DNA from: Psammoneis japonica
Taxonomy: Eukaryota
DNA length: 20,000 nt
Assembly (NCBI GenBank): GCA_008632985.1
Contig: QPGO01000014.1
Span: 548,871-568,870, forward strand
Reading direction: 5' to 3'
Shown here: positions 1 through 20,000 of the stretch, piece by piece
How positions within the stretch are numbered: position 1 is the stretch's first letter
How the letters are laid out: the number at the start of each line of letters is the position of its first letter
Program-made: the position numbers and the translations under genes
Notes under the pieces: generated by a model
What the model saw: only the letters and a program-made list of their open reading frames with translations
What the model was told of the DNA's origin: nothing
Databases searched by the model: none

Positions 1-1584
1 GCGTTCTGTGCAATTCTGCTTCATCACGGAGGAAATCACCATGGGTGCTTCGTGATTGTCAACAATGGCATTCATGAGATCCGTACCGGCAATGGTAATG
101 ACACCATCACTGCCAGCATTGGCCATGGCTGCAGTATAAAGAGTGGTAGGAATGGGGGATTGTGTCAGTGATTGTCTTTCCAAATTCAAAAAAACATTGC
201 GCAATTTCATATTCAATACAGTATTAGTCTCACCTTCTTGAATTCCACCAAACTCGGCAATGGGCACACGAAACTGTTTGCGGATACGCGAATAGGCCCC
301 CACGGCACTTGCGACTCCTCGTGCCGCACCGACGGACCCCGCCGGCAAACTCACACCACGTCCTTCGGCCAAACACTCGACAAACATGTGCCATCCAAAG
401 CCACACCGTTCTTGCCCACCCAAAATGGACGACATGGGGATCCAAACGTCTTCGCCTTCGACGGTTCCATTCATAAAGGCAGCATTGAGCGGGTAGTGAC
501 GAGGACCCATGCGGAGGCCTTCGTGGTTGCGTCTGGAGAAAAAAGCAATGGATGATGAAAAAAGTGAGATATTAAAAAATTGCAAAAATCACAATTCCCA
601 TTCCATTACACTCACTCCAACAATGCCACAGTAAACCCTTCATCACCCTTGCCCTTGAGCAAATTATTGGGATCCGACAGATTCAATCCAATCCCAACCA
701 CTCCCGCCACGGGCGCCAGGGTAATGTATCGTTTCTTAAAGGTCGCTCTCACTCCCAGTTCTCCATTACGCTCTTCCACAACACAATCACTCCCAATCAA
801 GACGTGGCATCACTCCCGAGTGTGGTCCCGTCAAACCAAAGCACGGGATGAGCGTCCCGTCCGCCAAGCGTGGCAAAAAGTACTCCTTTTGATCTGCGTA
901 CCGTATCGCATCAACAATTCGCCCGGTCCCAACGAATTGGGAACCGCCACGGTCGCATTGGCATCAAAGCAATGCGTCGCAAGCTTGGCCAAAATCATAG
1001 ACACGGCTTGGGTGGAAAAGCCCAAACCGCCCCATTCTTTGGAAATTTTGAGTCCAAAGAAGCGTTCGTCACGCATGTAATCCCACGCCTCCTTGGTAAA
1101 GTCCTTATCGACCGACACTTGATGATCGTTCAATAAACTACAAAGCGTATTGACTTGATTGTCCAAAAAATCCTGTTCTTCTTGGGTAATGGCAGGCTTG
1201 TACGTGTCCAACAACTTTTTCAGAGAAGGGCTTCCTCCGAAAATGTCTCTGTCAAAGCCTGAGAAATAAAAATAAAAACGTGTTGTCAGTACACTAGCAT
1301 GCAATCACAACTACACAAAACATACGTTTTGACAATATATTTTTATACACACCAATCGTTCCACATCCGAGCGCAACTTGTTCGGTTTGAGAAATGGCCG
1401 GCATGACACTCTTGGCCCAACGATAGACTCGTTTGTCAACGCCATGGACCAAACCCAAGAGGGTTCGTGTCTGTTGGACTTGATGATGATTGGAGAGAGC
1501 AGTAGTAGCAGTCCATGGTGCAGCAGTGGAGACTGTCGCTAGTGAGCGAGGAGCACTCCGAGTGGCGCTCTTGGAAAGCATCAT
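1..1584 (-). CDS. fadE: FadE-type acyl-CoA dehydrogenase with probable mitochondrial transit peptide; 5' part only. Exons 1584-1353, 1258-616, 532-234, 128-<1; three apparent 1-nt deletions in exon 2
   Basis: The spliced translation gives MPAISQTEQVALGCGTIGFDRDIFGGSP...FFGLKISKEWGGLGFS...[47 protein letters not shown]...KRYITLAPVAGVVG...RHYPLNAAFMNG...GWHMFVECLAEGRGVSLPA...YSRIRKQFRVPIAEFGGIQE...SSVMKQNCTER, all hallmark FadE-clade motifs. The N-terminus MMLSKSATRSAPRSLATVST is S/T/R-rich with no acidic residues. Confidence 0.92.
129..233 (-). other. Intron 3 of the acyl-CoA dehydrogenase gene (105 nt)
   Basis: GTGAGA...TACTGCAG; removal joins GGIQE-A-MANAGSDG in frame. Confidence 0.85.
533..615 (-). 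other. Intron 2 of the acyl-CoA dehydrogenase gene (83 nt)
   Basis: GTGAGT...TTTTTCTCCAG; removal joins VALL-E-RNHEGLRMG in frame. Confidence 0.88.
1259..1352 (-). other. Intron 1 of the acyl-CoA dehydrogenase gene (94 nt)
   Basis: GTGTGT...TTTATTTCTCAG on the minus strand; removal joins TI-G-FDRDIF in frame. Confidence 0.85.
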
Positions 1585-1949: not shown

Positions 1950-4043
1950 TCTAACTGTTGATCATGCTTTGAACATGCTGAGGGTGACAGGAGATTATGT
2001 GTGTCATGCAGGGAAAACAACAGTGTTGCAAGAAGTGCGCACACAACTCCAAGGAGACCACAGCCAGCTTCTCCCTTTGTCACAATGATCATTGTGTGGC
2101 GCTGCTCGATGGCAGCAGCAGGCACCTCTCAAAGAATGACTTGGCACCTTGTCTCTGTGCAGTTCTTCTTTGTCCAATCCTTCCAAGATGCTCCACAGTC
2201 CATCATCTGGTGTGAGTGACACCAAAGCATGACCCCTCCCAACAAGCAGTGCCTTGACACAGCACCCCTGTGTTCTTTGGCGCGGCACTGCTCTCTGGAT
2301 CCAAGCAACTCTTGAGGTCAGAGAGCCCAAGTTGACTCATGTGTCTGTGTCTTCTCAAGCTCTCCAGTTCTTCCCATGCAACTCTCTGAGAGTGTGCGAT
2401 GCTCTGGCTGGCTCTTCTGTCAGCAACTGCTTTGGTGGTGACAGCTGCAAAAAAGCAGGCATGGAGAGAGCTGGGGAGAGTGCTTGCATTGTGTGCCTGT
2501 GTCTCCTGCCACAACAGGCATGTGTGCACTTGTTCAGCTGTGAAAAAAAGGCAGAAATTGTGGAAAGAGCTTGCTGTTGTCCTCCAAGAGCTTTTCAAAA
2601 CAAAAAAAAATGGCACAAACAAAACAAGGCAGTCCATTGTGGCCGCTTGCCAGCACAAAACAAAAATCCGAGCTGAGCTGGCCTCGCCAACTCCAACAAG
2701 TCAAAGCATGCAAAGCTGCAAGCTGAGCAAAAAAGTGCCCAAAAAAAAGAAAAGGAAGGTGCGATGATGCATGGCCAAGGGTGTTCCATCAGCCACAAAA
2801 AGGCCAACAAGCTCATTTGGAAGCTGACTGCAATTGGCAAAAATGAAAGCCAATGCAAAGTTTCCAAGGGGAGGGGCATGTTGAACACAACTGGCTCTTC
2901 TGTCAGCAACTGCTTTGGTGGTGGCAGCTGCAAAAAAGCAGGTGCAGAGAGAGCCAGGGTGAGTGCTTGTGTCTTGTGCATGTGTCTCCTGCCACAACAG
3001 GCAGGTGTGCACTTGCTCAGCTGCAAAAAAAGGGTGGCAAATGTGGAAAGGGCTTGCTGCTGTCCTCCAAGAGCTCTTCAAAAAACAAAAAATGTCACAA
3101 ACAAAACAAGGCAGTCCATTGCAGCTGCTGGCCAGCACAAAACAATGACCTGGGCTGAGCTGGCCTCACCAACTCCAACAAGTCAAAGTGTGCAAAGCTG
3201 CAAGCTGAGTGAAGAAGTGCGCCCAAAAAGAAGAAAAGGGAGGTGCGATGCATGGCCAGGGGTGTTCTGTCAGCCACAAAAAGGCCAACAAGCTCATTTG
3301 GACTGACTGCAATGGCCAAAAATAAAAACAAAGACAAAGTTGCCAAGGGGAGGGGCGTGTTGAACACAACACACTGTGCCAAATGAAAAGTGACACATCA
3401 AAAACAGAAGGCAGAAGCTCGTCCTGCATCTGGCGCCATTTTGAAAAGCTGCAGTTGCTTGTGCCTCACAGCACACACCTTTTCTGGACAAACAGTCTGC
3501 CCCTAAAGTGCCAAGACTAAGGGCACATGGCAGGAGTGGCAGCCAAGTTGTGTGCAAAGGATGAGAGGTGTGAGCAACATGGAGATGTTCAAAACTCGCA
3601 GCTTCTTTTTTTAATTTTTTGTTGATGTCAGTCAAACGCTTCTCAGCCACTTGCTGGCAGGTGCAAGAGAGGAGTTGGGAGGCATTGCAGGCCGACAAAG
3701 AGGTCTCAGTTGCTGCAGAGATGTGGAGCATTCCTTGCCCAGTGCACTGAACGTTTCAGTGTGAGTGTTGAGCAGATCAGACAGCCAAGGTTTGAGGGAT
3801 CAGCTGCACAATCATCTGGCAACAGCAACTGGCTGTCTGGTGATGAGACACTGTCAAACAAAACATCATTTCTGAAATGACACGTTGTTTCTGTGACAAG
3901 CAGAAGTTGTCTCCTCCGGTCGTTTCGGTTTGAGTTGGAAACTGTTCGTTCATTGACATTTTGGATTGTGTGAGAGCCTGTGAGGTGAAGTGCGAGCGCC
4001 GCTGAATCCTGCTTTGGCAGTTTCGGTTTTGCCCGCGCGAAAG
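1950..4043. other. TpA- and CpG-depleted degenerate domain 1 (probable decayed repeat or transposon-derived DNA, family unidentified)
   Basis: No TA dinucleotide between 1998 and 3322 and only four more up to 4043. Few CG, abundant TG/CA. Contains an internal tandem duplication and only short Tyr-free ORFs. Confidence 0.8.
2408..3369 (+). repeat. Diverged tandem direct duplication: ~483-bp unit (2408-2890) and ~479-bp unit (2891-3369)
   Basis: Both units begin CTGGCTCTTCTGTCAGCAACTGCTTTGGTGGTG and end GGGGAGGGGC(A/G)TGTTGAACACAA. They are collinear throughout, with many TG<->CA differences. Confidence 0.95.
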
Positions 4044-4292
4044 TATCTGAACAAAAACAGTCCATAGAAATTCTGTTCCCCAGTGCGCACGGGGTCTTTG
4101 CCATTAGAATTACTGTATCAGGTAGAAAACGAAGTAGAGTCTGTCCAGCGTTCTCCAAAATATCCATGCGCACTGATTGATAGACCTTCTTCTTAGTTCA
4201 CGTAATGTTCTTTGGACAGAACATGTTCAAAGCTTCCCGCACCCTATGATAGAGTGATTTGTCCACAAAAAGATGTCAACCGCGACGTGACA

Positions 4293-5551
4293 ATGGTGAT
4301 GTTCCCCAAAGCTCAGTTGCAACTTGTTGTTGCTTCTGCTTTTAGGTTCCTCACTTCTCAAGCATTGAGGCCCCTGCGATTGGATTCGCCGCTTAACCAA
4401 GAGTACTTTGTGTTCAGCCATAATGCAGCTACGGGCTATCTTGCAAACAAGCAAGGAATTGAAGGTATTAGGCTTGGCTTTTTCAAGAATCAAATAGGCA
4501 ACTTCACGGAGCAGCTCGGTTGTGGTGCTCGAGCTTTCGACCTTCGTCCTGCTGAAATCGACGGTGACATCTTTTTTCGGCACGGGGGCGTGCTGGTGCC
4601 TGAGATATCCTTCCAGAACGGAATCCAAGAAATTTTGGATTGGTCCGCATCGGATACATCTGAATTGATTTTGCTCAAGATCTCCAAGTGTCGGGACGGC
4701 GAAAACTGTGATGCCATTTCGACGATTCTTGCGAACTTGGGAATCGAATACATTACGGACTGCAGCGAGTTTGGAACTCTCACTGTTGGAGAGGCACTAA
4801 ACAAGAGTCAGGTTCTGGCTATTGAAGGTTCTTGTTTCATTCAGAACTTTAATGACACCCTGGAATGCCATGGGTTCTTGCCCGACGATAACGATCCTGC
4901 AAATGTAGCTGCAGTACGAGATTGCGTCCCAGATCTGGAATCTGAGATTAGCCTAGAACAGTTCGCGGGCATTTTCCTGTGTCTACAGGTGGCTCTCACG
5001 CTCGATAAGGTCAACCTTTTTGATTGCTGGAGTAGTAGCAGCTCGAAAGATTTTCCTGTAACCCAGCTTTTCAACCATCTCAAGGAAGTTGTGCTGCGGG
5101 ACCACCACAAGATGGTTTGCCTTGGCAGTGGCAAGCTCTTTGGCAAGGTGGGGAAGATACCGTCGTGCTTTCCACGTTTCGCCCTCTCCCGTTACCCCTT
5201 GTCCCTGACCTTACAAGTCTAGAGATTTCAAGCCTTCTCAAGAATAATGAGGAATCTCAAATCAACCGTCTGGTTTTGGAGTTGGTTACGGACTTGGTAA
5301 AGAACAATACTATTCTAAATTTGGTAGAGGTGGACTTTGTATGTGAGACGTATGGTCGCCAGCTGTTGTCGGCGGTGAGACCAGATGATGCGGCTGTGGG
5401 AACGCCCATGCCTACGTCAATGGCGTCACCGCCAACGACGACACCGCCAACGACTCCGACGCCCACTCCTTCTAGCGGAACCAAGGCGGGACCGCTCATG
5501 TTTGTATCTCTTTTTGTTATTCTTGTTTCGGAGATTGTCCAGCTTGTTTAG
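4293..5551 (+). CDS. Secreted PI-PLC X-domain (PLC-like phosphodiesterase) protein with Pro/Thr linker and hydrophobic C-terminal tail; one apparent 1-nt deletion near 5095
   Basis: Signal-like N-terminus MVMFPKAQLQLVVASAF. Motifs SHNAATGY, NQ..FTEQLGCGARAFDLRP and FFRHG supply the two catalytic His positions. Coding continues in the 5117-5551 frame (WQWQALWQ...LNLVEVDFVC...PTPTP...LMFVSLFVILVSEIVQLV). Confidence 0.78.
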
Positions 5552-6001
5552 ATGAGCTGCGAAATGTTGCTCGCTTGTGGTGACCTGGACATACGCGAGT
5601 GTTGGGGACAGTTCAGATTTGTGAATGGTACAATTTAAATCGAGGGATTAAGGTATTGCTGTTTGTTTTAATACCGGTAGTAACCACGTGCTATGTGTTA
5701 TACCTAATAATATAGTACCGTTCATTTTGTTGTACCGGTAGATCTCGTCCTTGAATCTTGGTCCACAAGCACTGCCATGGTTTCAACATCTTCAAAGCGC
5801 GGCAGAAAAGAATGCAATCCATGATTTCGACACCTTCGTGTACTACAGCTCACTACTTGACACTGTCGTGAATACCACTTTAGCTCACATTGCATCCATA
5901 GTCTTGGTAATGCCAAATTGGCTAGAGGAAACTGGAAATCATCTGTGAAAGGACATAATGTGTCACGTGTAAATCTTCTTTTTCTTTCTATTTGTCTTTA
6001 T

Positions 6002-6928: not shown

Positions 6929-9393
6929 GGTCGTAAGTTGAAGATGCAAAACAAAATCAATCTATTAAGCCACAAGGTCAACCGGTGGTCCATTGTGAAG
7001 GTAAGTACGGGGATCATGAGGAAGGAAGGCGGCGGTAAAGCACCATGGTCTGTTGATGATCCTGATCTTACTCTGATGATGAGTCAGCGCGTCATGCGTT
7101 TTAGTTTCGTGTGCTAATTCAGTCTTGCATCGGTTGATTTGATGTGCTGATTGAACGCGGAGGGGAAAATGGCAAACCCAAAACGTGGGACGTACCACAT
7201 GACCTCGGCGTTTGAAGATTCATTGTAATTGTGGTTGTGCTTTGTGTTGTTTAGGCGTGTAGGATACCTGTAAGACTCGACAAGGTCGTGGATGACTTGG
7301 AGGGGATCATGAAGGATGCAAGGGAGATTGAAGACGAGAAAACAACGGTCTGCCCAGTCGTCGCAAACAACGTGGAAGTCTACAAGATTGTTGGTGATGA
7401 ACATTCAGCAGTTCGATCGTGCAATGAAGCGTGCCGCAAAAAAGAAAAGGGACTCGACTGGGAAGCTCTTGCTGCTGCTGCAGTCATGGCACTGGAGGCA
7501 GAAGTTGGGCACATCACCAGCGTGGTCAAAAACTTTGCAATCTTGCAGCAGCAGCAGCTCCTTTTCTTGCCTGCTCTCAATTGACCATTGTGCAGTCTGT
7601 GTGTCATTCACCCATGAATTTTTTCTCTGTCACAGCCACCATTGGAGAGAGATTGTGTGGTGGACTGCAGCAATCCAACAGCATTTTCTCATCACATTTC
7701 CCTGATGCACAACTGAGCGTGCATCATTTTGCTCTGATCCATTTAAAAACCCACAACAGGTGTCCTTGCCTTTTCCTCCCAAGTCCCAGACAGTTTTTGC
7801 TGCAGCCAGGCAACAACCTCCTCACCCCAGTTTGATGACATTTTTGGGAACATTTGTGGGAGACACCTCCATCAAGAGCATCCTGCCATTCTGCAGTTAA
7901 ATGCAGGCATGGCAGGTCTGCCCACAACAGCATTTTGTCAGCTGTCAGTCTGGCACTGATTTTGTCACATTGAGCAACCCAGTGCAACACCCAGTGCTTC
8001 TCTTCACAATTGGGGCTGGTGGGTCATTCTCAGCAGCAATGGGACATGGGCAACATGAGGGCATTGGTCGCCAGAAGCTCAGAAAGTGGTGGAGAGAAAA
8101 CAAGCTCATTGTCAGCTCACAACCAGATGACCCCCAATTCCAAGGATCCATTTTCAGCCTTTTAACTCTCAAAAAAAGCTGATGGGGACAGCACGTGAAT
8201 TCTCAGAAAATGACACAGAAACACAGAGGGCCACCTCTCTGCTGCACCTGGGTGTTTGCACATGTCTCCATCACCAGGTTTTCTGTGAAGCCAGAATGCA
8301 AACATTCAAGAATGCCAGCATGCCAAGAGACATTTCCTTGCAACACATGTTGCAGCTGTCAGCACCACATGGGAAATGAGTGAGTGAACACCCTTTGCTT
8401 GCACAGGAGTTGAGATGATGTCAGATGAGAAACAGAGTGTCGATGAGGGCATGTGGTTTTTTGCTTCAGATCTCTCATTGGTTCATTTGCAGAAAAGTCT
8501 TTTTGGGCAAGTGAAGAATGCACAAGGCACAGAGCAACACCTGGTGCAACCCAAACAAAAACATGAATTGAGTGAGAGCAGGGTCATCATTTCTTGTGCC
8601 CACAGGAACTTTGTTGCTTTCTCATTTCTGAGCAGGGACTCTTGCATGAGTGAACTTGCCATCACACAGGGGCACAGTGCAAGCAGTCAAGTGCTTGTTG
8701 TCAAGTCCCTTGAGGGTGTGCTCATTGGCCTTTTGGTGAGCTGCACACTCATCTCCATGGCCTCCAAGTTTTAACCCCACCTGTCATGTCCATCAAATGA
8801 TCACCAAACATGTTTGGGAAATCTGTTGCAGCACCCCCATCCAGAGCACCCAGCCACTCAACCACAGCCAGATCTGTGGCAGCAAGATCTCCACTTGAGC
8901 TGCCCTCCAGAGCTTTAAGATCACATCTTCTGGTGCTGCCCAAACATCCTTCCAAAAGTCATGTGTGCCAGATTCAGGCAAGATTGTAACAGCATTGGTG
9001 CAATTTTTGGCAACTCCAAGCAACTGACTGATGCACTTCTTTTTGTGTGAGAAATGAAGTGGTGTGCCATTTGGCACCAATCAATCAGTGAGAGCACCAA
9101 GATGTCAGGTGTGTTGAGCCAGAAATCTCTTCCTCTGGGACTTCATCATTTGTCCTCTGGTTGTTTCACATGTGCCGTCAGATGCAAGAAACATTGAGGC
9201 ACCCTGCAGTCATGAACAACAGCTGTCACTGTGTCCAGATGTGGCCCCCTTTCTTGTGCAAGGAAGAAAGCTCATTGCAGCCATGACCATTTGCAAAGAC
9301 ACTCCCAGGTTGTCACTGTAAATCAATTTAACCTTTGCAAAAAACATTTGGTTGGAGAGCAGAGCCTGCAGTTTGTTGCAAGAAATTGTGTTG

Positions 9394-9467
9394 ACCACAG
9401 AGCTTTCTTCTGTGCTTTTCTTTCAGATGGACCACAGAGCTTTCTTCTGTGCTTTTCTTTCAGATGG
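9394..9467 (+). repeat. Perfect 37-bp tandem duplication
   Basis: ACCACAGAGCTTTCTTCTGTGCTTTTCTTTCAGATGG occurs at 9394-9430 and 9431-9467. Confidence 0.97.
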
Positions 9468-10544
9468 CATGTGTGCCCCATCCCAGGTTGTGACCTCAAG
9501 AGTGTTCTTGGCAGTGGCAAGACCACTGCTCCACTTTTTCACCAACATCTTGGGAGAAGCAGTCAATGTGTGCATCATGAGGTCAACATGGCAATCCCAG
9601 TGAGCTTCAGTGTCACAGCCATTGCATGACCCATCTCAACTCTCAGAATCATTGCAAGAGAAAGCACATGTCTGGGCTGCCACAAACAGCAATGAGCACT
9701 TCTGTTGTCAGCTCATTCCACAACAACATTCTCTTCATGGTGAGCAGTTTGGAGCAAGTGAGCTGAATCACTGCACTTGCTTCTTGCACTCATCAATGCC
9801 ACAAATGTTTCAGCCAAAGCATCAGCTGCTCTCTTTGGCATGCACTCTTGGTGCACATGACATTTCCTCCTTTTGGACAGAAGCATCAGAGAGAGACTCT
9901 GACTTCAGTGGTGACATCAGCTCCAGATGTGGCAGTTTTTCCAGATCTGCCTGAGCAGGTTTTTGCAATTCAAAGACCAACACTGCTCCTTCTTGTTGCA
10001 ATGGGATCTTGACCTTGTTCTGGGTCCACCAACATGGCAGCAGCCATGCAAATGGGAATGTTCCTCAACAGTTTGTGCTCTTTGCAGCATGGACTTGCAA
10101 CAACAGTGCCATCAGGACTCAAAAACATTGTGGGTGCAAGTCCAAACTGCTCTTGCAATTGTGCGCCCTCAGCACTTTGGGCTGATTGGATTGAGTGATG
10201 ACTGTCTTTGAGGAAATGTCTGGTGCCTGCAGGTTTGGATGAGTCCTTCCTAAAATGACCTTTGTGCTGGTGCAATCATTCATAAAAAGAAACTAACATG
10301 AAAGTTTGGATGAACACAAAGGCACAGAAAATTGGATGTCATCAAAACATGTGAGTTTCTTTTGAACAAAGGAAGCAGATCTTAACTTTGCAAGGATTCC
10401 AAAACACAAGTGGTGGAGAGATTGATGGAGGAACATCAAAGGTGGCAGCTCTCATGTGGCAACTGACACTTGTTGGCATGCATCAGAAAAGAAGAGACAG
10501 CGCAGAGGATTGGCCACCTGCTGAGCCAAACAACAAGCAACACA

Positions 10545-11785
10545 TGCAGTTGTTTGTCACACCTTTCTTGAAGTGAGTGCCTCTCAGATGGACAGCAATT
10601 CCTGCATTGCTTTTTGACCACATTCAACAAGTGTTTGTCCTGCAGCTCTGTTTCTTGCACAATGTTTGTGTTGCGGCCAGGAAAAAAGACACCATGTCCG
10701 GCCGACTGCAATGACGAAACCAAACTTCCTCAAATGGGTCTGCCTTGTGAACAGTTCCCAGTGCCTCCCTCACCCAGTGAATGCTGCAGCAGCTGTTAAC
10801 CTGAAACCTGAGGAGGACAGACCAAAGACTTGCACCACACATTTTTGAATGTCACCTTGCTTCACCAGGTGTGCTCAAGCCCCATCGGTTGTTTTGTTGC
10901 ATTGCTGGGTTTGTTCCCAAAGCAGCTGTCTCCCCTTTGATGGATGTTGGATCCTGAATGTCCAGGCAGCCCCACAGACTGTTGCTGCAGTTTTTTTTTG
11001 CAGTTCCTAAACTTGTCCATGTCATTGCAGGTGACCCAGTCCACATCACCTGGGGCCCCAGTTTGATGAAAAATGTTGACTTGAGCTGCAGTCTGAACAC
11101 AAATGTTCCTTGCACGCGTTCACATTGAAGGGCACATGCACAATGTGATTGACGTCAAGCCATGGGGGACTGGACAGATCAGGATCCTTGCTGCAAATGT
11201 GGAAATGGTCAAACCCCTTGAATTTGAGCACATGATGACATGTGATCCACTTGGCGGGGCCGGAGCAATGTCAAAATTCTGCGTGAGCATCACCGTGACA
11301 AGTTTTGCTTCTGGAGAGGGCTGTTTGAGAGGCTGGTGGAGTTCAAAATCTACATTGTCCCTCATGCTGCAGGTGTGATTGTAGACTGCAGTGTTGGAAA
11401 CCACTGGGTCAGGTCCCTGGGAACATCAAAAAGAAATTCCCGATCCATCTTTGCAACCTCACGCAACAATCTGAGAGCCACTCTGCCATTGCAGGCCGTG
11501 CAGCACCCTTGGACCACTTGGGGATCTCCTTCTCTTGGCACACATTCTTTTTTTTGCAAGAGTGAAATGTGCCATCCAACAGTGGGAATGTTGGTTGGCG
11601 ACATTCTTGTCTGTGCAGGGAGGGGGTGTCAAGACAATTGTGGCAAAAAGAGGGACTTCTTGTTTGATCAATCTTTCATTGTGAGCAAGAATCTTTTTGT
11701 TGGCTTCTGCATGGCATGTTTTGAGGAGAGATTTGTCATGAAGATTGGCTGCATTGCTTGTGGTTGCGGGAGTGGCAGTGGTGCT
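10545..11785 (-). pseudogene. Decayed GT92/DUF23-like (GT-A fold) glycosyltransferase, copy 1
   Basis: The minus strand reads AKWITCHHVLKFKGFDHFHIC (family pattern EWI.YH...GFDHFYIY) and VDWVTCNDMDKF (pattern WV..xDxDEF). Multiple frameshifts and stops. Confidence 0.75.
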
Positions 11786-11819
11786 GGCACTGGCAGGTTG
11801 TGGCTGGGGTTTTGTGGGT

Positions 11820-12440
11820 GTGATCATGTCACATCTGAGCCTGACAAAATCCTCCTCACACAATTTGTTGATGCTTTCCAGGGTGTGGGAGTCAAAATCT
11901 TTGGAGTCAGCTTCTGAAAGGATGGGGGCAAATGCAATGGCAGGCCAAAGTTGAAACCATGTTGTTGCATGAGTGTTGGAACTCCACAGTGAGATTCTCA
12001 CATTTCAACAAGTGCACGATGGTGGCTTTGTTGTCCTCATCAAAGGCACACAGACATTGAGGCAACAAGTGCCCACCTCCAATGCCATTGCAGTTTGCGG
12101 CATGCTCAATTTCTTTTTTGTCCATCTGTTGAGCTCATCTGCACCGTGCTCAGGTTCATGTTTTCTGAACCATTTGCAGCAGAACTCTGAGAGAACTTGA
12201 TCACAGAGGTTTCAAACAACAGCAGACAGGTCTGTGCCTGGCACCTCACAGAGGTTGTTGTTGGGCTTGTTCTCTGTGAGCCAATGAGGTGGCGTGTGCC
12301 AAGCAGGTCCTCCACAACTGACCTCCCGGTTTTGGAAGGGAACCGTCATGGGCTTGGCAGGGGTGCAGTCCTTCCCCAGGCAGTGCCTTTTGTCATGGCC
12401 TCCCCCTTTGCTCAAATGGTGGCAAAATCCTCACTGGACT
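11820..12440 (-). pseudogene. Decayed sulfotransferase family 2 domain, copy 1 (core plus C-terminus; lacks the N-terminal PSB loop)
   Basis: PAWHTPP; GTDLSAVV*NLCDQVLSEFCCKWF (from LFAVVRNPYDRVLSEFYY); GGHLLPQ; HLLKCENL; KDFDSHTLESINKLCEEDFVRLRCDMI (from IN.LY.EDF..LGYDM). Confidence 0.78.
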
Positions 12441-13963
12441 TGTGGATGAAGTGCGCTTTCGAAGCACAAAAAAGAGCTCCGCATCAAACACCATTGTCGA
12501 CCATGTGTGCGAATTCCTGGGCAAGCGGGTGGCAGATTTGAGACCAGTTCTTGGATTGCTTCTTTTCCCTTTCTGTCACTTGCTTCCTGACCGCCTCCTC
12601 GTAACACTGCTTCAACACATCAAATTCATTTGGAAGCAACACATCATGCAACGTCTTTGCTTCAAAAACTGCTGTCATCTGAGCTTGGACAGGGTCATTT
12701 CCTGTCCATTTCGTGCAACAGGCTTCATCGGGCCTTCCTGTCATTGGACAGCGGTCCCGTTCTTCAGAATCCGCATGGCAGGGTAGACACGGGTCCAACA
12801 TCACAAAATGGCTCAAACACAAACGCATTGAGGAAGCTTTGCTCCACGGTTTCATTCGTCAGCAACGTCTTGCTGACGACGGTTGTTGCATGCAATGGTG
12901 CAGTCTTCTACAGTGGAAGCCTGGTTGTTTCGAACTTCTCTTTGAAAAGATTCGTGAAATCTCCCACTTTTCAATGGCAGGCAGACAGCATCGCTTGCTT
13001 CTTTGTTCATTGAACTTGCTTCGTTTGCTTGTTGTTGCACTGCCAGCATTGCCATTGGTGGCAAGATGGTCGATGATGCCATTCTTTCTTGATCATGACA
13101 TCGGAATGCTCTAAAATGTTGCTCAAAAACTTCATCGTATTTCCAACAAATTTCTCGGGCTAGTTCCAGTCTGTTCTTGCCTTTTTCTCCTCTGGTGTCA
13201 GAGAGCATTCTTTGTGTTTGACGTTGAACCAGGTCGTAAAAATGTTCCCCTGTGAAAGAACCAGTTCCTCAACTTTATTCACCATCGGCTCTGCAACATC
13301 TTCAGAGGTGCACCTCAACATCGTTCGCCATCATCTTCATTGTCACATGCCTGGTGTTCAACGGCTCCAATGTTCATGGTCCGGGAAAACACTGCAATTG
13401 TGCGTGAAACGTGCCAGGACACGAATCAAAATCTTTGGGAGTCAGCTTGTCAAAGGGTGGGGGCAAATGCAATGGCAGGCCAGTGTTCAAGCCACATTGT
13501 TGCATGAGCATCGGCAACTTCATTGTGAGATTCTTGCATTTCAACAAGTGTGTGATGGTGGCTTTGTGGTCTTCATCAAAAAGTGTGTGGCCATTGGGGC
13601 AACAAGTGTCCATCTCCAATGCCGCTGCCATTTTGCAGCATGCTCATTTTTTGGTCCATCTGTTGCACTGCTCATCTGCACCATGTTCAGGTCCATGTTT
13701 TCAAACCATTTGCAGTGGAACTCTGAGAAAGTTTCAAATGACTGCAAACAGGTCTTTGCCTTGTGCCTTGCAGGAGTTGTTTTTGGGATCATTTTCCAAG
13801 AGCCAATGGGGCACCAGCACATGCCAAGCAGGTTTTCTAAAACTGACCTCCCAGTTTTGGAAGGAAACCATCATGGCTTGGTGGGGGTGCAGTCTTTCCC
13901 CAGGTAGCACATTCATCATGGCCTCCCCCACCACTCAAACAGTGGCAAAACCCTCACAGGACT
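11892..13963 (+). repeat. Dispersed direct repeat pair B: ~11892-12440 and ~13426-13963 (~0.55 kb each)
   Basis: Shared start TCAAAATCTTTGG(G)AGTCAGCTT...GGGGGCAAATGCAATGGCAGGCCA, collinear to GTGGCAAAA.CCTCAC.GGACT. Confidence 0.93.
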
Positions 13964-14230
13964 CCCGCTTGATTGGAGGCAGCAACTTGTGTTGCTGTGC
14001 CACCTGTCTTTGTAGTGTGAGCCACCAGTTCAAGCTGTGGTTTGTTGCTTTCTTGTCAGTGGGTGGACAGTGTGTTTCACTGGTCCTTCAACACTGCATC
14101 TCCTTGATTGGCTTGAATTTTTCTCATTGTGAACGAAAAGCAATCATCCAATTGAGAAAGGAGAAGACCAAACAAGTTCCATTGAGCTCACCAGTTAGAT
14201 TTGTTTTGGTCAGGACTTGTCGCCGGATGA
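13426..14230 (-). pseudogene. Decayed sulfotransferase family 2 domain, copy 2 (N-terminus plus core; truncated after KDFDS)
   Basis: QLELVAHTTKTGGTATQVAA..AGVL*GFCH contains the 5'-phosphosulfate-binding loop (KTGGT at 13996-14010). Then PAWHV, GKDLFAVI*N, SEFHCKWF, HLLKCKNL and KLTPKDFDS. A possible signal-anchor remnant CLVFSFLNWMIAF lies near 14135-14175. Confidence 0.78.
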
Positions 14231-14270
14231 CCAATGCCAAGCCAACACTTTGCCCATCACATTTCACATT

Positions 14271-15760
14271 TGCAGTTGTTTGTTGCGCCTTTCTTGAAGT
14301 GAGTGCCTTTCAGATGGACAGCAATTCCTGCATTGCTTTCTTGACCACATTCAAATTTGTCCCGTAGCTCCGTTTCCTTCACAACGTTCTTGTTGTGGCT
14401 GGGAAAAAAGGCACCCGTGTCCAGCCATCTGCATGACAAAACCAAACTTCCTCAAATGGGTCTGCCTTGTGAACAGTTCCTGTGCCTCTCTCACCCAGTG
14501 AATGTTGCAGCAGTCAAGCTGAGAAGGACGGACCAAAGACTTGCATTGCACATTTCTGAACGTCGCCTCGCTTCACCAGGTGCACTCGAGCACCATCAGT
14601 TCTTTCGTCACATTGCCAGGTTTGTTCCCAAAGCCAACTGTCTCCCCTTGTGGCAGAAATGTTGGATCCTGAATGTCCAGGCAGTCCCGCAGACTGTTGC
14701 TGTGGATTCCGCACGGTTCTACAAACTCATCCATGTCGTTGCAGGCAACCCAGTCCACCATGCCCATGGCCCCAGTCCGATGCAAAATGTGACTTGAGCA
14801 GTGGTCTGAACACAAAACATTCCTTGCACTGTGTTCACATTGAAGGGAATGCAAGTGATGCAATTGACATCAGGCAATGGGGGACTCATTAGATTGGGAT
14901 CCTGATGTAAATGTAGAAATGGTCAACCCCCATGAAATGAGCACATGATGGCATGCATCCACTCGGCAGCTAGAGCAATGTCAAAATCCCGGACCAGCAC
15001 GGCCGCAACAAGTTTTGCTTCCAGAGAGGGCTGTTTGAGAGGATGGTGGAGTTCGCAATCTACACAATCTTGCATGCTGCAGGTGTGATCGTAGACTGTG
15101 ACATTGGAAACCACTTGGTCAGGTCCCTGGGGACATTGAATGGAAATTCCCAATCCGTCTTTGCAACCTTGCGCAATGACATGAGCTTCCCTGCCATTGC
15201 AGCACCACGCAGCATCCTTGGACCACTTGGGGATTCTTTTTCTGTGCAACCGTTTTTTTCCAAGCAATGTGGGCAAGAGTGAAATGTGCCATCCAGTGGT
15301 GGGAATGGGTGTCGTCTTTGTTCTCGTCCATGTGGGCAGGGAGCGTGAGAACAATTGTCATAAAAAGTGGAACTTTTTGTTTGATGATTCTTTCATTTCA
15401 GCAAGAATCTTTTTGTTGGCTTCCATCAGCATGTGTTGAGGAGAGATTTGCCATGAAGATCGACTGCATTGCTTGTGGTTGCAGGAGTGGCAGCAGCACT
15501 GGATGCCTCCTGCATTGTAGACTCCTCTGCATGTTATGTTCATTTTCTTCCATTTGATTTTCACTGGCAGCTGCAGCAAAGGCAGCAGTGCCACAGGGCC
15601 ATCTTAACTTGTTCCCACGTGGTCAAGACGACTGTGAATGCCCCTTGCTGGCATTGCATGAGAAGACAGCCAACAAGACACAAGCCATCAACGCTTTCTG
15701 GCTGCCACTGACTGCCGACACTGACTCTAGGTCTGACAGCATTGGCATCATAATGTCTTG
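14271..15760 (-). pseudogene. Decayed GT92/DUF23-like glycosyltransferase, copy 2
   Basis: AAEWM...MGVDHFYIY (14907-14933) and VDWVACNDMDEFVEP (~14715-14760). A possible signal-anchor remnant ALMACVLLAVFSC lies near 15655-15695. The 5' boundary is uncertain. Confidence 0.75.
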
Positions 15761-18291
15761 CTGCTCCTCAATGTGATGGTGTCAGCGAGACTAAAGTGGA
15801 TGAAGGTGATGGCATGCACTTGTTTTGTTGAGCATCCCATGATGCCTGCATTGCAAACAAAGGAAAAGTGGGAAAAAGGAGGGACGATCATTTGTGATGA
15901 CGAGTTTTGAATGAACACTCTCTGCCACCACTGTGATGGCATCCGGCAGCATCACATTGTAAAACATCCATCAGACGCAACTGGAGATGTCGGAGAAGAT
16001 CCCACAGCAGTTCCGCCACCTTGAACCTTGAACAACTGAGTCATCTTTGGATGAGTTGCTTGGTGCAGGACTTGGATCTGCATCAAGAAAACCATGCCAA
16101 TCTTGAAAAGGTAATTCAAATGATGGTGCACCAGGAAGCAGCTGCTGATCATTGCTGTTGAAGTGCATGAGGATGTGTTCTGAGTTTGGCTGCCCATGGT
16201 GCAACCATTTTTTTCCTCTGCTGACTGCTGATGACTGATGACCAAAGACTGTGGATGGAATTTGTTCTTGTCCAACGCGATGGTGTGTGGTGCTGTGCAA
16301 ACTGTCAAAGTCATTTGTCAAGGTCATTGCAACATTTCTGCCCCATTGATCATGTGATTGAGATTCAAATCCATTTGTTCTTCTCACAAAATCATTGTGA
16401 GATCTCTCTTCTTCAGTTTCTAGCCACAATTTCTCACAGAGAACTTTCACAACACTGCACTGCAACCTTGAGCTTCTGCTCTTGTCTGCTGCAAAGCTGC
16501 TTTGCTGCTTCTTTGCTCTGTCCAGCAGCTCCTCTGGCTGCAGAGGTGGGGCATCATGATTTGCAGAGCATTGTCAAAAGTTGAACATTGTGTGTTGTGA
16601 ACTTTCAAATGTGCAATGTTTTCTTCAAAGAGATGGGAATGAACTGGGTGGAAGATTGTGGCCTGCAGAAAAGCACCCAAAATGCACGGACCTCATCTGC
16701 AAGCATCAGTTCAAGCAATGTTCAGAGTCCTCTGCTGGGGCAACAACCTGGGAAAAGAATGCAGGTGTGGTCCAAAGCACTGATCTGTCTTGATGCAAGC
16801 AAATGACAGTGGGCACAAAGTGTTTCAAAAACATGAGCCGTGCACAATTTTTGCACCTGCAGTCTGACTCAGGAGTGCTGGGGGCTCTCTTTGCTGAGCA
16901 CATGATCTCCCTCTGTGGTGGTGCTGGAGGCTGAGTGAATGCATGTGTGCACCTGTGCATGCATTAAAGCACAACCACCAAAACTGAAACTTGCTGTGCT
17001 CCCTGCCAAACACTGGACGAGATTGCACAGCAATTTCTTGCTTGAGATCTCCACATTTCGCTGGGCTCACAGGGCTGATGATGTCTCTGTTTCAAAGCAT
17101 GCTCAATGGCTCCTGTGGCCTCTGTGACAGCAAAGCTTTTGGTGCTCTGCTCTTCTAAATTGCAAAACCATTTCCAAAGTTTCTTGTCATTTTTTGTTCT
17201 CATTTTGGCCCGGGATCTGATCTCACTTTTGGTCTTGGCTCGCTCTTTTTGTTCCGTTGAGGAGGATGAGGATGCCGACAGAGGGATGGAAAGAGTCAAA
17301 CATGGGGGTGATGCTGCAACAAGGGCACCACCACCTCCTCAAACAATGAGGAGGAACACATTTGAACATGAAACAGGCTCCATGCACCAGGCAGCTGCAA
17401 TGATCTCCAGCCCCCATGTCAAAGAATGCAAGGCAAAGAAGGTGAGAGCTTCTGCGAGAACCTTGGCCTCAAAAACTTCATCAAAAAGCACCGTCATTCT
17501 AGATCCATGCCAAAATGGACAGATTCTTTCTGAAGTAGAACTAAAAGGTTTGGATGAACAACTGAGCCTCTCGCACTCTCTAGAAGGAATTTCCAATTTC
17601 CCTGGCAAACGGTTGTGGATGCCGATGAGACAGATGATGGTCCAAATTTGCCATGTTTCTACACCTCTACACTTTCCTTCAGATGCTCTGCAAATATTCT
17701 TCCAACATGCCCTACACACAGTAAATAAAATGTGACTGTCATCGTTGTCCCATGAATGCTTCGTGAAAATCAAGATCATTGGAAAGTGCCGAAAATGACG
17801 ATCCAAATTTTTGACGTCGCTGACAAGGATCAGTTACGCACTGAGGCACAGCTGTTGGAAAGTACAGCTTCACCGTCAAGCCTTACATTGAACAACGGTT
17901 GGAGGAACCGAGACGGAAAATTACAACATATCGAGCCGCGTATCGTTGGGCATGCTCACGATACAACAACGATCGTCACGTCTCTGTCTCTTCACGTTTC
18001 TGTTGCTGAACTTTGACAACGGGGTGTGGCACAGTAGCCATAAGTTTAGTTTCGCATGGGCGCCTTGATGTCGCCCTCCGAGCCTTACTGCCTTACTTCA
18101 TATTAGAAACGAAAGCGTATATCAAACAAAGATCCCAGCCTTGATCCTGGAAAGCTCCCTACATTCGACTGTTTTCCATGTTTCATGATGCCTCTTTTTC
18201 GACAAAAGTGAGATCATAACTTCTTTTCTAGGCCAAATGTAAATCGAAAAATCTCTGACGACTATATTCTACCATATCAACATCTTATTAT

Positions 18292-18978
18292 CTAGTGGCC
18301 TTCTTCCTCTTCAGCTTCGATGCCAAGTTGGTGGTCCAATTCCATAAGCAATTGCGGTGCACCCTTGACCTTCGCCAACACAGATCCAACCTTTTCTTCT
18401 GCATCGATTTGTTCCATATGAAATGGATTAAGGAAGGCTTTGCACCCGTACTCCCCGCATCTATCAGCGGCGTCTGCAAGGCGGAGAAGGTTTTGAGTAT
18501 TGGTTTTCTCTGCATGAAGTATATCCTCCCATACCTCTGCCTCGGTGATCCAATCACACTTTGGCGCATCAAGAGCTTTCAACTGGACGGGAAAGTTTCG
18601 TTTCATGGCAAAGTCGAGAATAGCAAGTCCGTGGCCTCGCTCTTCGCCTGATTCTTCCAGCATCCATGCCGCCATTCCTGGAAGTCCGCGATCATGGCAC
18701 CAAATCGAGGCACTCAGGTACAGTTGCGAGGCCGCCAATTCAACAGATACCTGATCACTCCAGAGGTTCACCAACTCTTGCGATGTGCTTCCTGTTGTCA
18801 TTTCCGGAGTGGCTGGGTATGCAGGAGTCACGGTTTTATCGGGAGCGACAGGGCTTGATACTTGAGGGCTTCGGACTGCCGCCCCACCTCCGTTGAGCTG
18901 ACTCAAATATGGAGATTGAAGAGCCGACGCCGGTGCGGCGACAATAGCGGCAAAAAGAGCAGTAGCGGACAACTTCAT
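18292..18978 (-). CDS. FTN: Ferritin, diatom type, with bipartite (signal plus transit) plastid-targeting presequence
   Basis: MKLSATALFAAIVAAPASA|LQSP resembles an ASAFAP-type cleavage site. The mature domain QVSVELAASQLYLSASIW...GMAAWMLEESGEERGHG...DFAMKRN...AEKTNT...FLNPFHMEQIDAEEKVGSVLAKV carries the ferroxidase Glu/His/Gln ligands. Single intact ORF. Confidence 0.95.
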   Translation of the reverse strand: MKLSATALFAAIVAAPASALQSPYLSQLNGGGAAVRSPQVSSPVAPDKTVTPAYPATPEMTTGSTSQELVNLWSDQVSVELAASQLYLSASIWCHDRGLPGMAAWMLEESGEERGHGLAILDFAMKRNFPVQLKALDAPKCDWITEAEVWEDILHAEKTNTQNLLRLADAADRCGEYGCKAFLNPFHMEQIDAEEKVGSVLAKVKGAPQLLMELDHQLGIEAEEEEGH

Positions 18979-19049
18979 CGTCGTTTTTGTTTCATACAAC
19001 TTCTTTACTGTATTACGTATTTTGTTATGCGTTGGTGAAGGCGATCAAT

Positions 19050-19954
19050 NNNNNNNNNNNNNNNNNNNNNNNNNNNNNNNNNNNNNNNNNNNNNNNNNNN
19101 NNNNNNNNNNNNNNNNNNNNNNNNNNNNNNNNNNNNNNNNNNNNNNNNNNNNNNNNNNNNNNNNNNNNNNNNNNNNNNNNNNNNNNNNNNNNNNNNNNNN
19201 NNNNNNNNNNNNNNNNNNNNNNNNNNNNNNNNNNNNNNNNNNNNNNNNNNNNNNNNNNNNNNNNNNNNNNNNNNNNNNNNNNNNNNNNNNNNNNNNNNNN
19301 NNNNNNNNNNNNNNNNNNNNNNNNNNNNNNNNNNNNNNNNNNNNNNNNNNNNNNNNNNNNNNNNNNNNNNNNNNNNNNNNNNNNNNNNNNNNNNNNNNNN
19401 NNNNNNNNNNNNNNNNNNNNNNNNNNNNNNNNNNNNNNNNNNNNNNNNNNNNNNNNNNNNNNNNNNNNNNNNNNNNNNNNNNNNNNNNNNNNNNNNNNNN
19501 NNNNNNNNNNNNNNNNNNNNNNNNNNNNNNNNNNNNNNNNNNNNNNNNNNNNNNNNNNNNNNNNNNNNNNNNNNNNNNNNNNNNNNNNNNNNNNNNNNNN
19601 NNNNNNNNNNNNNNNNNNNNNNNNNNNNNNNNNNNNNNNNNNNNNNNNNNNNNNNNNNNNNNNNNNNNNNNNNNNNNNNNNNNNNNNNNNNNNNNNNNNN
19701 NNNNNNNNNNNNNNNNNNNNNNNNNNNNNNNNNNNNNNNNNNNNNNNNNNNNNNNNNNNNNNNNNNNNNNNNNNNNNNNNNNNNNNNNNNNNNNNNNNNN
19801 NNNNNNNNNNNNNNNNNNNNNNNNNNNNNNNNNNNNNNNNNNNNNNNNNNNNNNNNNNNNNNNNNNNNNNNNNNNNNNNNNNNNNNNNNNNNNNNNNNNN
19901 NNNNNNNNNNNNNNNNNNNNNNNNNNNNNNNNNNNNNNNNNNNNNNNNNNNNNN
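19050..19954. other. Assembly gap (905 N)
   Basis: Run of N. Confidence 1.
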
Positions 19955-20000
19955 CACCGCGCATCACACGAACGTTGCTTCCCTTTCTCAAGAATCCATC

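Follow-up and report, generated by a model that had tools for sequence, protein, structure and literature searches.

We analyzed a stretch of 20,000 nucleotides of Psammoneis japonica (GenBank assembly GCA_008632985.1, contig QPGO01000014.1, positions 548,871 to 568,870 of the forward strand), which is referred to below as the window and in which all coordinates are given. The window contains two direct copies of a decayed gene resembling those of the GT92 glycosyltransferase family, and a preliminary description had drawn attention to two conserved tyrosine codons at which one copy seemed to have lost the dinucleotide TA. That interpretation of the paralogue pair is supported by the results presented here, and the pair forms only a minor portion of a larger feature, which consists of two islands with sharp boundaries that have been nearly emptied of TA and CG. 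Island 2 (7382..17499), in which both copies lie, has strand-symmetrised observed/expected (o/e) ratios of 0.07 for TA, 0.23 for CG and 1.76 for CA/TG, and retains 48 TA in 10.1 kb. For island 1 (1997..4043) these ratios are 0.03 (4 TA in 2 kb), 0.25 and 1.73, and for the flanks 0.54, 0.94 and 1.22, respectively. The GC content is 0.48-0.50 in the islands and 0.47 in the flanks, and the island edges are sharp within about 100 bp.

Two decayed copies of a GT92-like gene

The two copies align between 10545-11778 and 14271-15493, with 78.9% identity in a blastn comparison of the window with itself. In a MAFFT alignment of this pair (pair A), 973 of 1251 columns are identical, and the remainder comprise 172 transitions, 61 transversions and 45 gap columns. 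The extent of each copy was determined by tblastn and by aligning it to a profile of nine homologues (P0008 was excluded) with a frameshift-aware dynamic programme of our own, for which the 482 of 656 profile columns having at least 4 residues were kept. Copy 1, the more mutated one, spans 10607..11806 on the minus strand, and has 7 frameshift steps and 3 in-frame TGA codons (rhoTA 0.05, rhoCG 0.24). Copy 2, the less mutated one, spans 14353..15440 on the same strand, with 9 frameshift steps and 1 in-frame TGA (rhoTA 0.13, rhoCG 0.43). The frameshift positions are approximate; the indels beside the motif discussed below were checked by eye. Neither copy has the intact reading frame of a functional GT92 member and, based on the frameshifts and the in-frame TGA codons in both, we conclude that both are pseudogenes. 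All four in-frame stops of the two copies are TGA.

The membership of the copies in the GT92 family is supported only indirectly. Firstly, a 144-aa open reading frame (ORF) of copy 2 (14923-15357, minus strand) gave 10 homologue matches among 1.84 billion representative proteins, the best having an E-value of 4e-20 and 44% identity. Secondly, a profile search with nine of these matches returned 7 proteins, 6 of which have a precomputed PF01697 domain. Furthermore, copy 1 is colinear with columns 49-462 of the profile and copy 2 with columns 76-455, the G-V-D-H-F-x-x-Y motif included; for the N-D-M-D-E motif, copy 2 has NDMDEF and copy 1 has NDMDKF. On the other hand, no stop-free fragment from the GT92 region reached the Pfam curated threshold; the best match was indeed to PF01697 (14351-14572, minus strand; E 0.016), but its 15.3 bits stay below the 23-bit cut-off, and a few others were matches to unrelated families at chance level. 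The assignment made in the preliminary description is supported by the colinear similarity and by homologues having PF01697, but not by any fragment of the window passing the Pfam threshold.

The two sites singled out in the preliminary description are 18 nucleotides long. Copy 1 has gcaaatgtggaaatggtc at 11193-11210, which on the minus strand encodes DHFHIC with CAC for His and TGC for Cys. Copy 2 has gtaaatgtagaaatggtc at 14907-14924, encoding DHFYIY on the minus strand. Direct reading bears out that they differ at 2 of the 18 bases only; the codons concerned correspond to columns 256 and 258 of the profile alignment, and the TA at 14908 and 14914 of copy 2 are among the few survivors of the island. 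Eleven homologues cover the motif (P0001, P0002, P0003, P0005, P0006, P0007, P0009, P0010, P0011, P0012 and P0013). At the second site all eleven have Tyr, so that the change from TAC to TGC is firmly polarised. At the first site five have Phe, four Tyr and two Trp; here the change from TAC to CAC is the parsimonious reading, although Phe is as common as Tyr. Neither His nor Cys was seen at the two sites in any of the eleven homologues, and one of them, P0012, has exactly DHFYIY.

Direct reading also shows that the DHFYIY of copy 2 is flanked by 1-nt indels relative to copy 1. Comparison of 14900-14960 of copy 2 with 11186-11250 of copy 1 reveals three separate 1-nt deletions in about 60 nt around the motif, which together restore the original frame, so that this frame of copy 2 (frame 'a') is open except for one TGA at 14923-14925. 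The restoration could be a coincidence, a sign of past selection or an assembly error.

Direction and spectrum of the changes

The fate of conserved residues was examined in alignment columns that are covered by at least 6 homologues and have a consensus of at least 75%. Nine of these are conserved as Tyr, and the 18 copy codons at these columns consist of 1 TAY, 6 CAY, 11 TGY and no others. Conserved residues other than Tyr, by comparison, were kept in 124 of 178 copy codons (Fisher p = 1e-7 vs Tyr). Hence, neither of the findings that would have contradicted the preliminary description was obtained: the intact homologues lack His and Cys at the two sites, and the enrichment of changes at TA extends along the whole gene. 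Six further columns with 50-75% Tyr have 11 aligned codons, which are CAC (2), TGC (3) or others (6), and never TAY.

At four Tyr columns (246, 276, 279 and 377) CAY in one copy faces TGY in the other, a combination to which only an ancestral TAY, mutated separately in each copy and on either strand, can have given rise. The earlier view that both strands are affected is therefore confirmed. Columns 276 and 279 are illustrative, having Tyr in 8 of 8 homologues at both: copy 1 has CAC and CAT (His, His; 11138..11149, minus strand), and copy 2 has TGC and TGC (Cys, Cys; 14853..14864, minus strand), the same ancestral TA having been resolved differently. Eight Tyr columns were mutated in both copies, with the same product at four and a different product at four, which fits an independent choice.

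Tyr is not the only residue affected. Arg was kept in 5 of 17 codons, and 9 of the 12 codons that replaced it read CAN or TGN, two of these being TGA stops (p = 4e-4). The residues that such changes generate are themselves stable in the copies (His 8/8, Gln 6/6, Cys 7/8, Trp 8/10). For the spectrum of changes, each replaced codon was paired with the closest codon for the consensus residue, 8 ambiguous codons being skipped and 7 with multiple changes being kept. The resulting 70 polarised changes comprise TA>TG (14), TA>CA (6), CG>CA (18), CG>TG (3), other transitions (8) and transversions (21), part of the latter probably being true differences between this lineage and the family consensus. 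Changes of the type A>G or T>C occurred 20 times at TA and 5 times outside it. The 21 changes at CG, together with the o/e of 0.23-0.25 in the islands versus 0.94 in the flanks, correspond to the pattern left by the decay of methylated CpG. CG is lost about as often as TA, and TA is thus not the sole target. Changes at purine positions outnumber the others by 32 to 9 among all polarised changes and by 17 to 9 within Tyr and Arg codons; we make no claim of strand bias, as the 32 versus 9 excess is mostly a detection bias at codon position 1.

Relatives of the copies were also sought in metagenome DNA. An alignment of 6 sequences matched 120 stretches, none of which was a relative, and a back-translated ADPFEEVW pattern matched 19 metagenomic loci, none of which was a GT92 relative or resembled the copies, all having ordinary TA and CG. 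As no outgroup was obtained at the nucleotide level, the polarity of the changes rests on protein homologues.

These homologues bear on the possibility that the changes went in the opposite direction, i.e., that His and Cys are ancestral and that copy 2 gained TA from CA and TG by C>T changes. A precedent exists in fungal repeat-induced point mutation (RIP), which is described as converting CA to TA and TG to TA in duplicated DNA (PMC2621366). However, the homologues have Tyr and never His or Cys at the Tyr columns; moreover, TA is nearly absent from the islands rather than enriched, and their GC content equals that of the flanks. We therefore regard this reverse polarity as refuted and give it next to no credence.

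Each copy was mutated independently

Two further repeat pairs are present in the islands. Pair B consists of 11889..12440 and 13423..13963 (both plus strand; 77% identity), and pair C is a tandem duplication in island 1 (2408..3370, plus strand), whose units 2408-2891 and 2891-3370 are 87% identical. If an ancestral TA or CG can give either CA or TG, copies that were mutated separately should have CA facing TG at the same position. Such doublets were found 31 times in pair A, 20 times in pair B and 10 times in pair C, whereas permutation (2000 permutations) gave means of 5.3, 2.5 and 0.7 and maxima of 12, 9 and 5, respectively. This excess, well outside the range of chance, shows that each copy was mutated independently after the duplication. 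Of the transitions, 105 of 172 in pair A, 50 of 78 in pair B and 25 of 41 in pair C are changes among pyrimidine-purine (YR) dinucleotides. From copy to copy, CG is conserved in 7% and TA in 27% of occurrences, and the other dinucleotides in 68-84%.

At sites within YR dinucleotides transversions, too, are raised, by a factor of about 3-6 over all other sites (7.8% vs 2.2% in pair A, 6.5% vs 1.1% in pair B and 5.3% vs 1.2% in pair C). Repeat B lies upstream of GT92 copy 1 and yet downstream of copy 2, showing that the region is not a simple tandem of one A+B unit; a third unit may have lost its GT92 part. A self-comparison of the window with bases collapsed to purine and pyrimidine gave no repeats above the shuffled maximum of 32 other than pairs A, B and C.

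The comparison of copies also bears on whether the pattern is an artefact of modified bases that were miscalled, or of converted reads in the assembly. The copies are indeed separated by single-base indels, and the assembly has a gap of 905 N. However, the changes are embedded in paralogues that are 79% identical and have a transversion divergence of 5%, the same ancestral site gave CA in one copy and TG in the other, and the stop spectrum is coherent, 4 of the 4 in-frame stops being TGA. In addition, the sized N gap suggests that the assembly was scaffolded from short reads or Sanger reads. An artefact is therefore a highly improbable explanation.

The islands and their boundaries

Instead of a dedicated process, the islands might reflect slow neutral decay. 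A genome-wide bias against TA and CG would then have brought old, nonfunctional DNA to equilibrium, while the flanks were protected by selection. Several observations are in line with this: at sites outside YR dinucleotides the two copies of pair A have diverged by 6.8% in transitions and 2.2% in transversions, as expected of old copies, no recognisable intact gene is present in the islands, and TA is mildly under-represented in the flanks too (o/e 0.54). However, the spacers between the long ORFs of the flanks, with rhoTA of 0.50-0.75 and rhoCG of 0.97-1.14, are normal in TA and CG, which argues against a genome-wide neutral bias. This applies to the putative non-coding spacers at 5223-6001 (rhoTA 0.75, rhoCG 0.97) and 17834-18291 (0.73 and 1.14). 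The sharpness of the island edges is another argument against such a bias. Finally, the divergence outside YR dinucleotides implies not only that the duplication is old but also that TA was lost tens of times faster than the background, 17 of 18 Tyr codons having lost it. For these reasons, we consider slow decay unlikely.

The losses of TA and CG share the same islands, and this might suggest that one is a consequence of the other. The T:G mismatches left by deaminated methyl-CpG could attract patch repair by an error-prone polymerase of the Pol eta type, which makes WA>WG errors, much as in the second phase of antibody somatic hypermutation. A single trigger could then deplete both dinucleotides, the loss of TA being a side effect of the repair. 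However, AA is not depleted in the islands (o/e 1.22-1.37), although it would be affected by a WA motif. Furthermore, the sub-region between the B repeats (12450..13420) is poor in TA (rho 0.12) and has largely kept its CG (rho 0.71), from which it follows that the two losses are separable. Finally, the TpA hypermutation of the alga Bigelowiella natans, to which we return below, proceeds without C>T changes. We find this explanation improbable.

Much the same judgement, or a slightly less favorable one, applies to the view that thymine is the target. 5-formyl and 5-hydroxymethyl pyrimidines are prone to mispairing, and an oxidase of the TET/JBP type acting on the T of TpA and on the 5-methylcytosine of CpG could thereby cause both T>C and C>T changes. 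The attraction of this view is that a single activity, directed at 5-methylpyrimidines in YpR palindromes, would account for the convergence of both TA and CG on CA/TG within the same islands. The partial uncoupling of the two losses, though, speaks against it, and a T>C change on one strand cannot be told apart from A>G on the other by sequence alone.

The surviving dinucleotides suggest that the neighboring bases have some influence. TAY occurs in the islands at 0.03-0.07 and TAR at 0.17-0.23 of the density in the flanks, all four CGN being at 0.23-0.29, and 1 of 52 surviving TA in the islands is in an RTAY context versus 91 of 263 in the flanks. A rule by which only RTA or TAY is attacked is thus supported by the surviving TA but not by the bases that precede the His-type changes, and amounts to a weak tendency. 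In island 1 the o/e of ApT (0.52) and GpC (1.42) is skewed as well, these ratios being weakly shifted in island 2 (0.86 and 1.17). The skew of island 1 may have its cause in an additional A>G process acting on ApT, or simply in the composition of the 483-bp tandem repeat.

A consequence of the purge concerns reading frames. TGA is common in the islands, whereas TAA and TAG are rare; these two stops being nearly gone, stop-free ORFs are open in all six frames. ORFs of 100-320 codons are present in the six frames, for example that of 319 aa at 13408-14367 (plus strand), and none scores above the Pfam curated cut-offs. A Pfam scan (E <= 0.05) of 78 island ORFs gave five weak matches (E 0.005-0.047), all of which stayed below the cut-offs; viral, transposon and other recognisable families were not among them. 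Viral and transposon Pfam families were likewise not found in 36 fragments of the window. The sole recognisable gene of the islands is of a cellular type, GT92. Since the six open frames invite false gene calls, gene finders probably over-call in such islands.

Flanking genes and host lineage

The genes flanking the islands have a normal composition and look diatom-like, judging from their sequence relatives. An intact ferritin gene is located at 18292..18999 (minus strand; rhoTA 0.48, rhoCG 0.86). Its best match is 66% identical, its nearest named relatives are from diatoms (Amphiprora, Amphora, Nitzschia, Epithemia, Extubocellulus and Attheya), and the members of its nearest Atlas cluster are mostly Bacillariophyta. 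The best solved relatives are 4zlw and 3e6r (E 1e-44 to 1e-45), which we take to be diatom ferritins. A run of 905 N directly upstream of the gene (19051-19955) is either a sized scaffold gap or a masked stretch. At the other end of the window, an acyl-CoA dehydrogenase gene (1..1304, minus strand) is split over two frames, which implies an intron. The best matches of its fragment are 75% identical, and the named ones are nearly all diatoms (Helicotheca, Skeletonema, Seminavis, Chaetoceros, Striatella, Epithemia and Grammatophora), with one row for Alexandrium. Neither the ferritin nor the acyl-CoA dehydrogenase has an identical entry in the protein collection searched, from which the host, a diatom-like alga, is therefore absent; this and the diatom names among the best matches led us to reject B. 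natans (see Discussion) as the source. Between the islands, a long ORF of normal composition (4206..5222, plus strand) has weak similarity to PI-PLC-X.

Discussion

The changes described here are specific to the dinucleotides TA and CG and have a definite direction, they arose independently in each copy after the duplication, and they stop sharply at the edges of the islands. The search of the full-text literature for TpA-directed DNA hypermutation retrieved only one report, a 2026 preprint on a chlorarachniophyte, and none for diatoms. It appears, therefore, that the islands belong to a kind described only once before, and that they come from a different eukaryotic lineage.

That preprint (Mettrop et al., bioRxiv 10.64898/2026.01.13.699255) deals with integrated viral DNA of Bigelowiella natans that undergoes hypermutation specifically at TpA. 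According to its text, 231 of 302 nuclear mutations in mutation-accumulation lines fell in two integrated viral regions (10.64898/2026.01.13.699255), where A>G and T>C changes accounted for 210 of 211 and 20 of 20 mutations, every one of these changes lying at TpA and yielding TpG or CpA (10.64898/2026.01.13.699255), and an ADAT2-like deaminase was proposed (10.64898/2026.01.13.699255). The resemblance to the islands is close, as TpA becomes TpG or CpA in both cases, and the B. natans clusters, as portrayed in the preprint, are likewise depleted of TA, raised in CpA+TpG and full of ORFs that cannot be annotated. Both thresholds of the preprint are passed by 12 of the 19 1-kb windows of our sequence. 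Ten of these are consecutive (7001-17000); the other two (2001-4000) form a run shorter than three.

There are also differences. The host studied here is diatom-like and not a chlorarachniophyte, and the depletion is far deeper, with rho of 0.03-0.07 versus the 0.45 that the preprint gives for the active region of nucleocytoplasmic large DNA virus (NCLDV) origin. Furthermore, CpG is co-depleted in the islands, whereas the main text of the preprint does not mention CpG. Finally, the targets presented in the preprint are viral or foreign, whereas the recognisable target in our case is a duplicated gene of a cellular type, and the process is known from sequence alone.

Among older systems, fungal RIP is the closest analogue, though opposite in direction at TA. 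Like RIP, the process described here causes dinucleotide-specific transitions on both strands and ruined duplicated DNA, each copy separately. However, RIP makes TpA from CpA, whereas TpA is destroyed here; the islands are not AT-enriched, and most of their DNA is not duplicated within the window. The decay of methyl-CpG in silenced repeats shares with the islands the changes from CG to TG or CA, the CG o/e of about 0.24 and the equal effect on the four CGN, but it leaves TpA intact and accounts for 21 of the 49 polarised transitions. The adenosine deaminases ADAR, ADAT and TadA would give the A>G outcome and have a preference for a 5' U or T; ADAT and TadA naturally act on A34 of tRNA, which follows the conserved U33. 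To our knowledge, the known roles of these enzymes are all on RNA. Unlike their action on RNA, the process described here affected both strands, and the copies are not retro-copies.

Based on these considerations, we favor as a reasonably probable explanation that a GT92 gene was duplicated and that two dinucleotide-specific transition processes, of which the one at TpA was driven by an enzyme, then acted within the confines of the islands. The glycosyltransferase gene would have been duplicated first, and both copies, about 10 kb around them and the separate 2-kb block of tandem repeats would then have become subject to the two processes. The first would change TpA to TpG and CpA, i.e., A to G at an A preceded by T on either strand, and the second CpG to TpG and CpA. 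Their common end point would be CA/TG. Some 93-97% of TA and about 75% of CG would have disappeared in this way, with Tyr codons becoming those for His or Cys, Arg codons becoming those for Gln, His, Cys, Trp or a stop, and TGA remaining as almost the sole stop codon. We infer that the first process is a hypermutation of DNA targeted to particular loci, like that observed in living lines of B. natans, its likeliest agent being an adenine deaminase that requires a 5' T. The second may be the ordinary deamination of methylated CpG in silenced DNA, and the island would then represent a silenced chromatin domain in a diatom-like alga.

Several points weigh against this explanation. First, as the copies are old (6.8% and 2.2% divergence at non-YR sites), there is room for a slow process acting over a long time. 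Second, CpG is spared in the hypermutable regions of B. natans, so that the loss of CG in the islands calls for a second process. Third, transversions are raised at YR dinucleotides as well, perhaps through error-prone repair of the deaminated bases or through effects of the alignment. Fourth, the bases 5' of the His-type changes show no preference for purines, being 4 pyrimidines and 2 purines. Fifth, repeats within the window cover only some 30% of island 2. Lastly, the Pfam scan of the 78 island ORFs revealed no viral or transposon families, although heavy mutation may hide such domains.

The islands are informative in two respects. On the one hand, the Tyr codons of the paralogue pair provide an independent, sequence-level proof of the direction of change. 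On the other hand, the islands show the long-term end state of the process, which is DNA almost without TA or CG. If the process is enzymatic, it would imply a natural A-to-G editor of DNA with a strict sequence context, which is relevant to genome defence and to base-editing tools.

More tentatively, and with somewhat greater doubt than in favor, it is possible that a diatom-like stramenopile possesses a locus-targeted defence based on adenine editing of DNA (TpA>TpG on either strand) that, together with CpG methylation, erases both palindromic YpR dinucleotides from silenced, duplicated or otherwise unwanted DNA. If so, this adenine-editing defence would be a functional counterpart of fungal RIP that is shared with the rhizarian Bigelowiella and, being common to both hosts, it may be ancient within the group of stramenopiles, alveolates and Rhizaria (SAR). 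It would also imply the existence of a natural adenine deaminase that acts on double-stranded DNA with strict 5'-T specificity.

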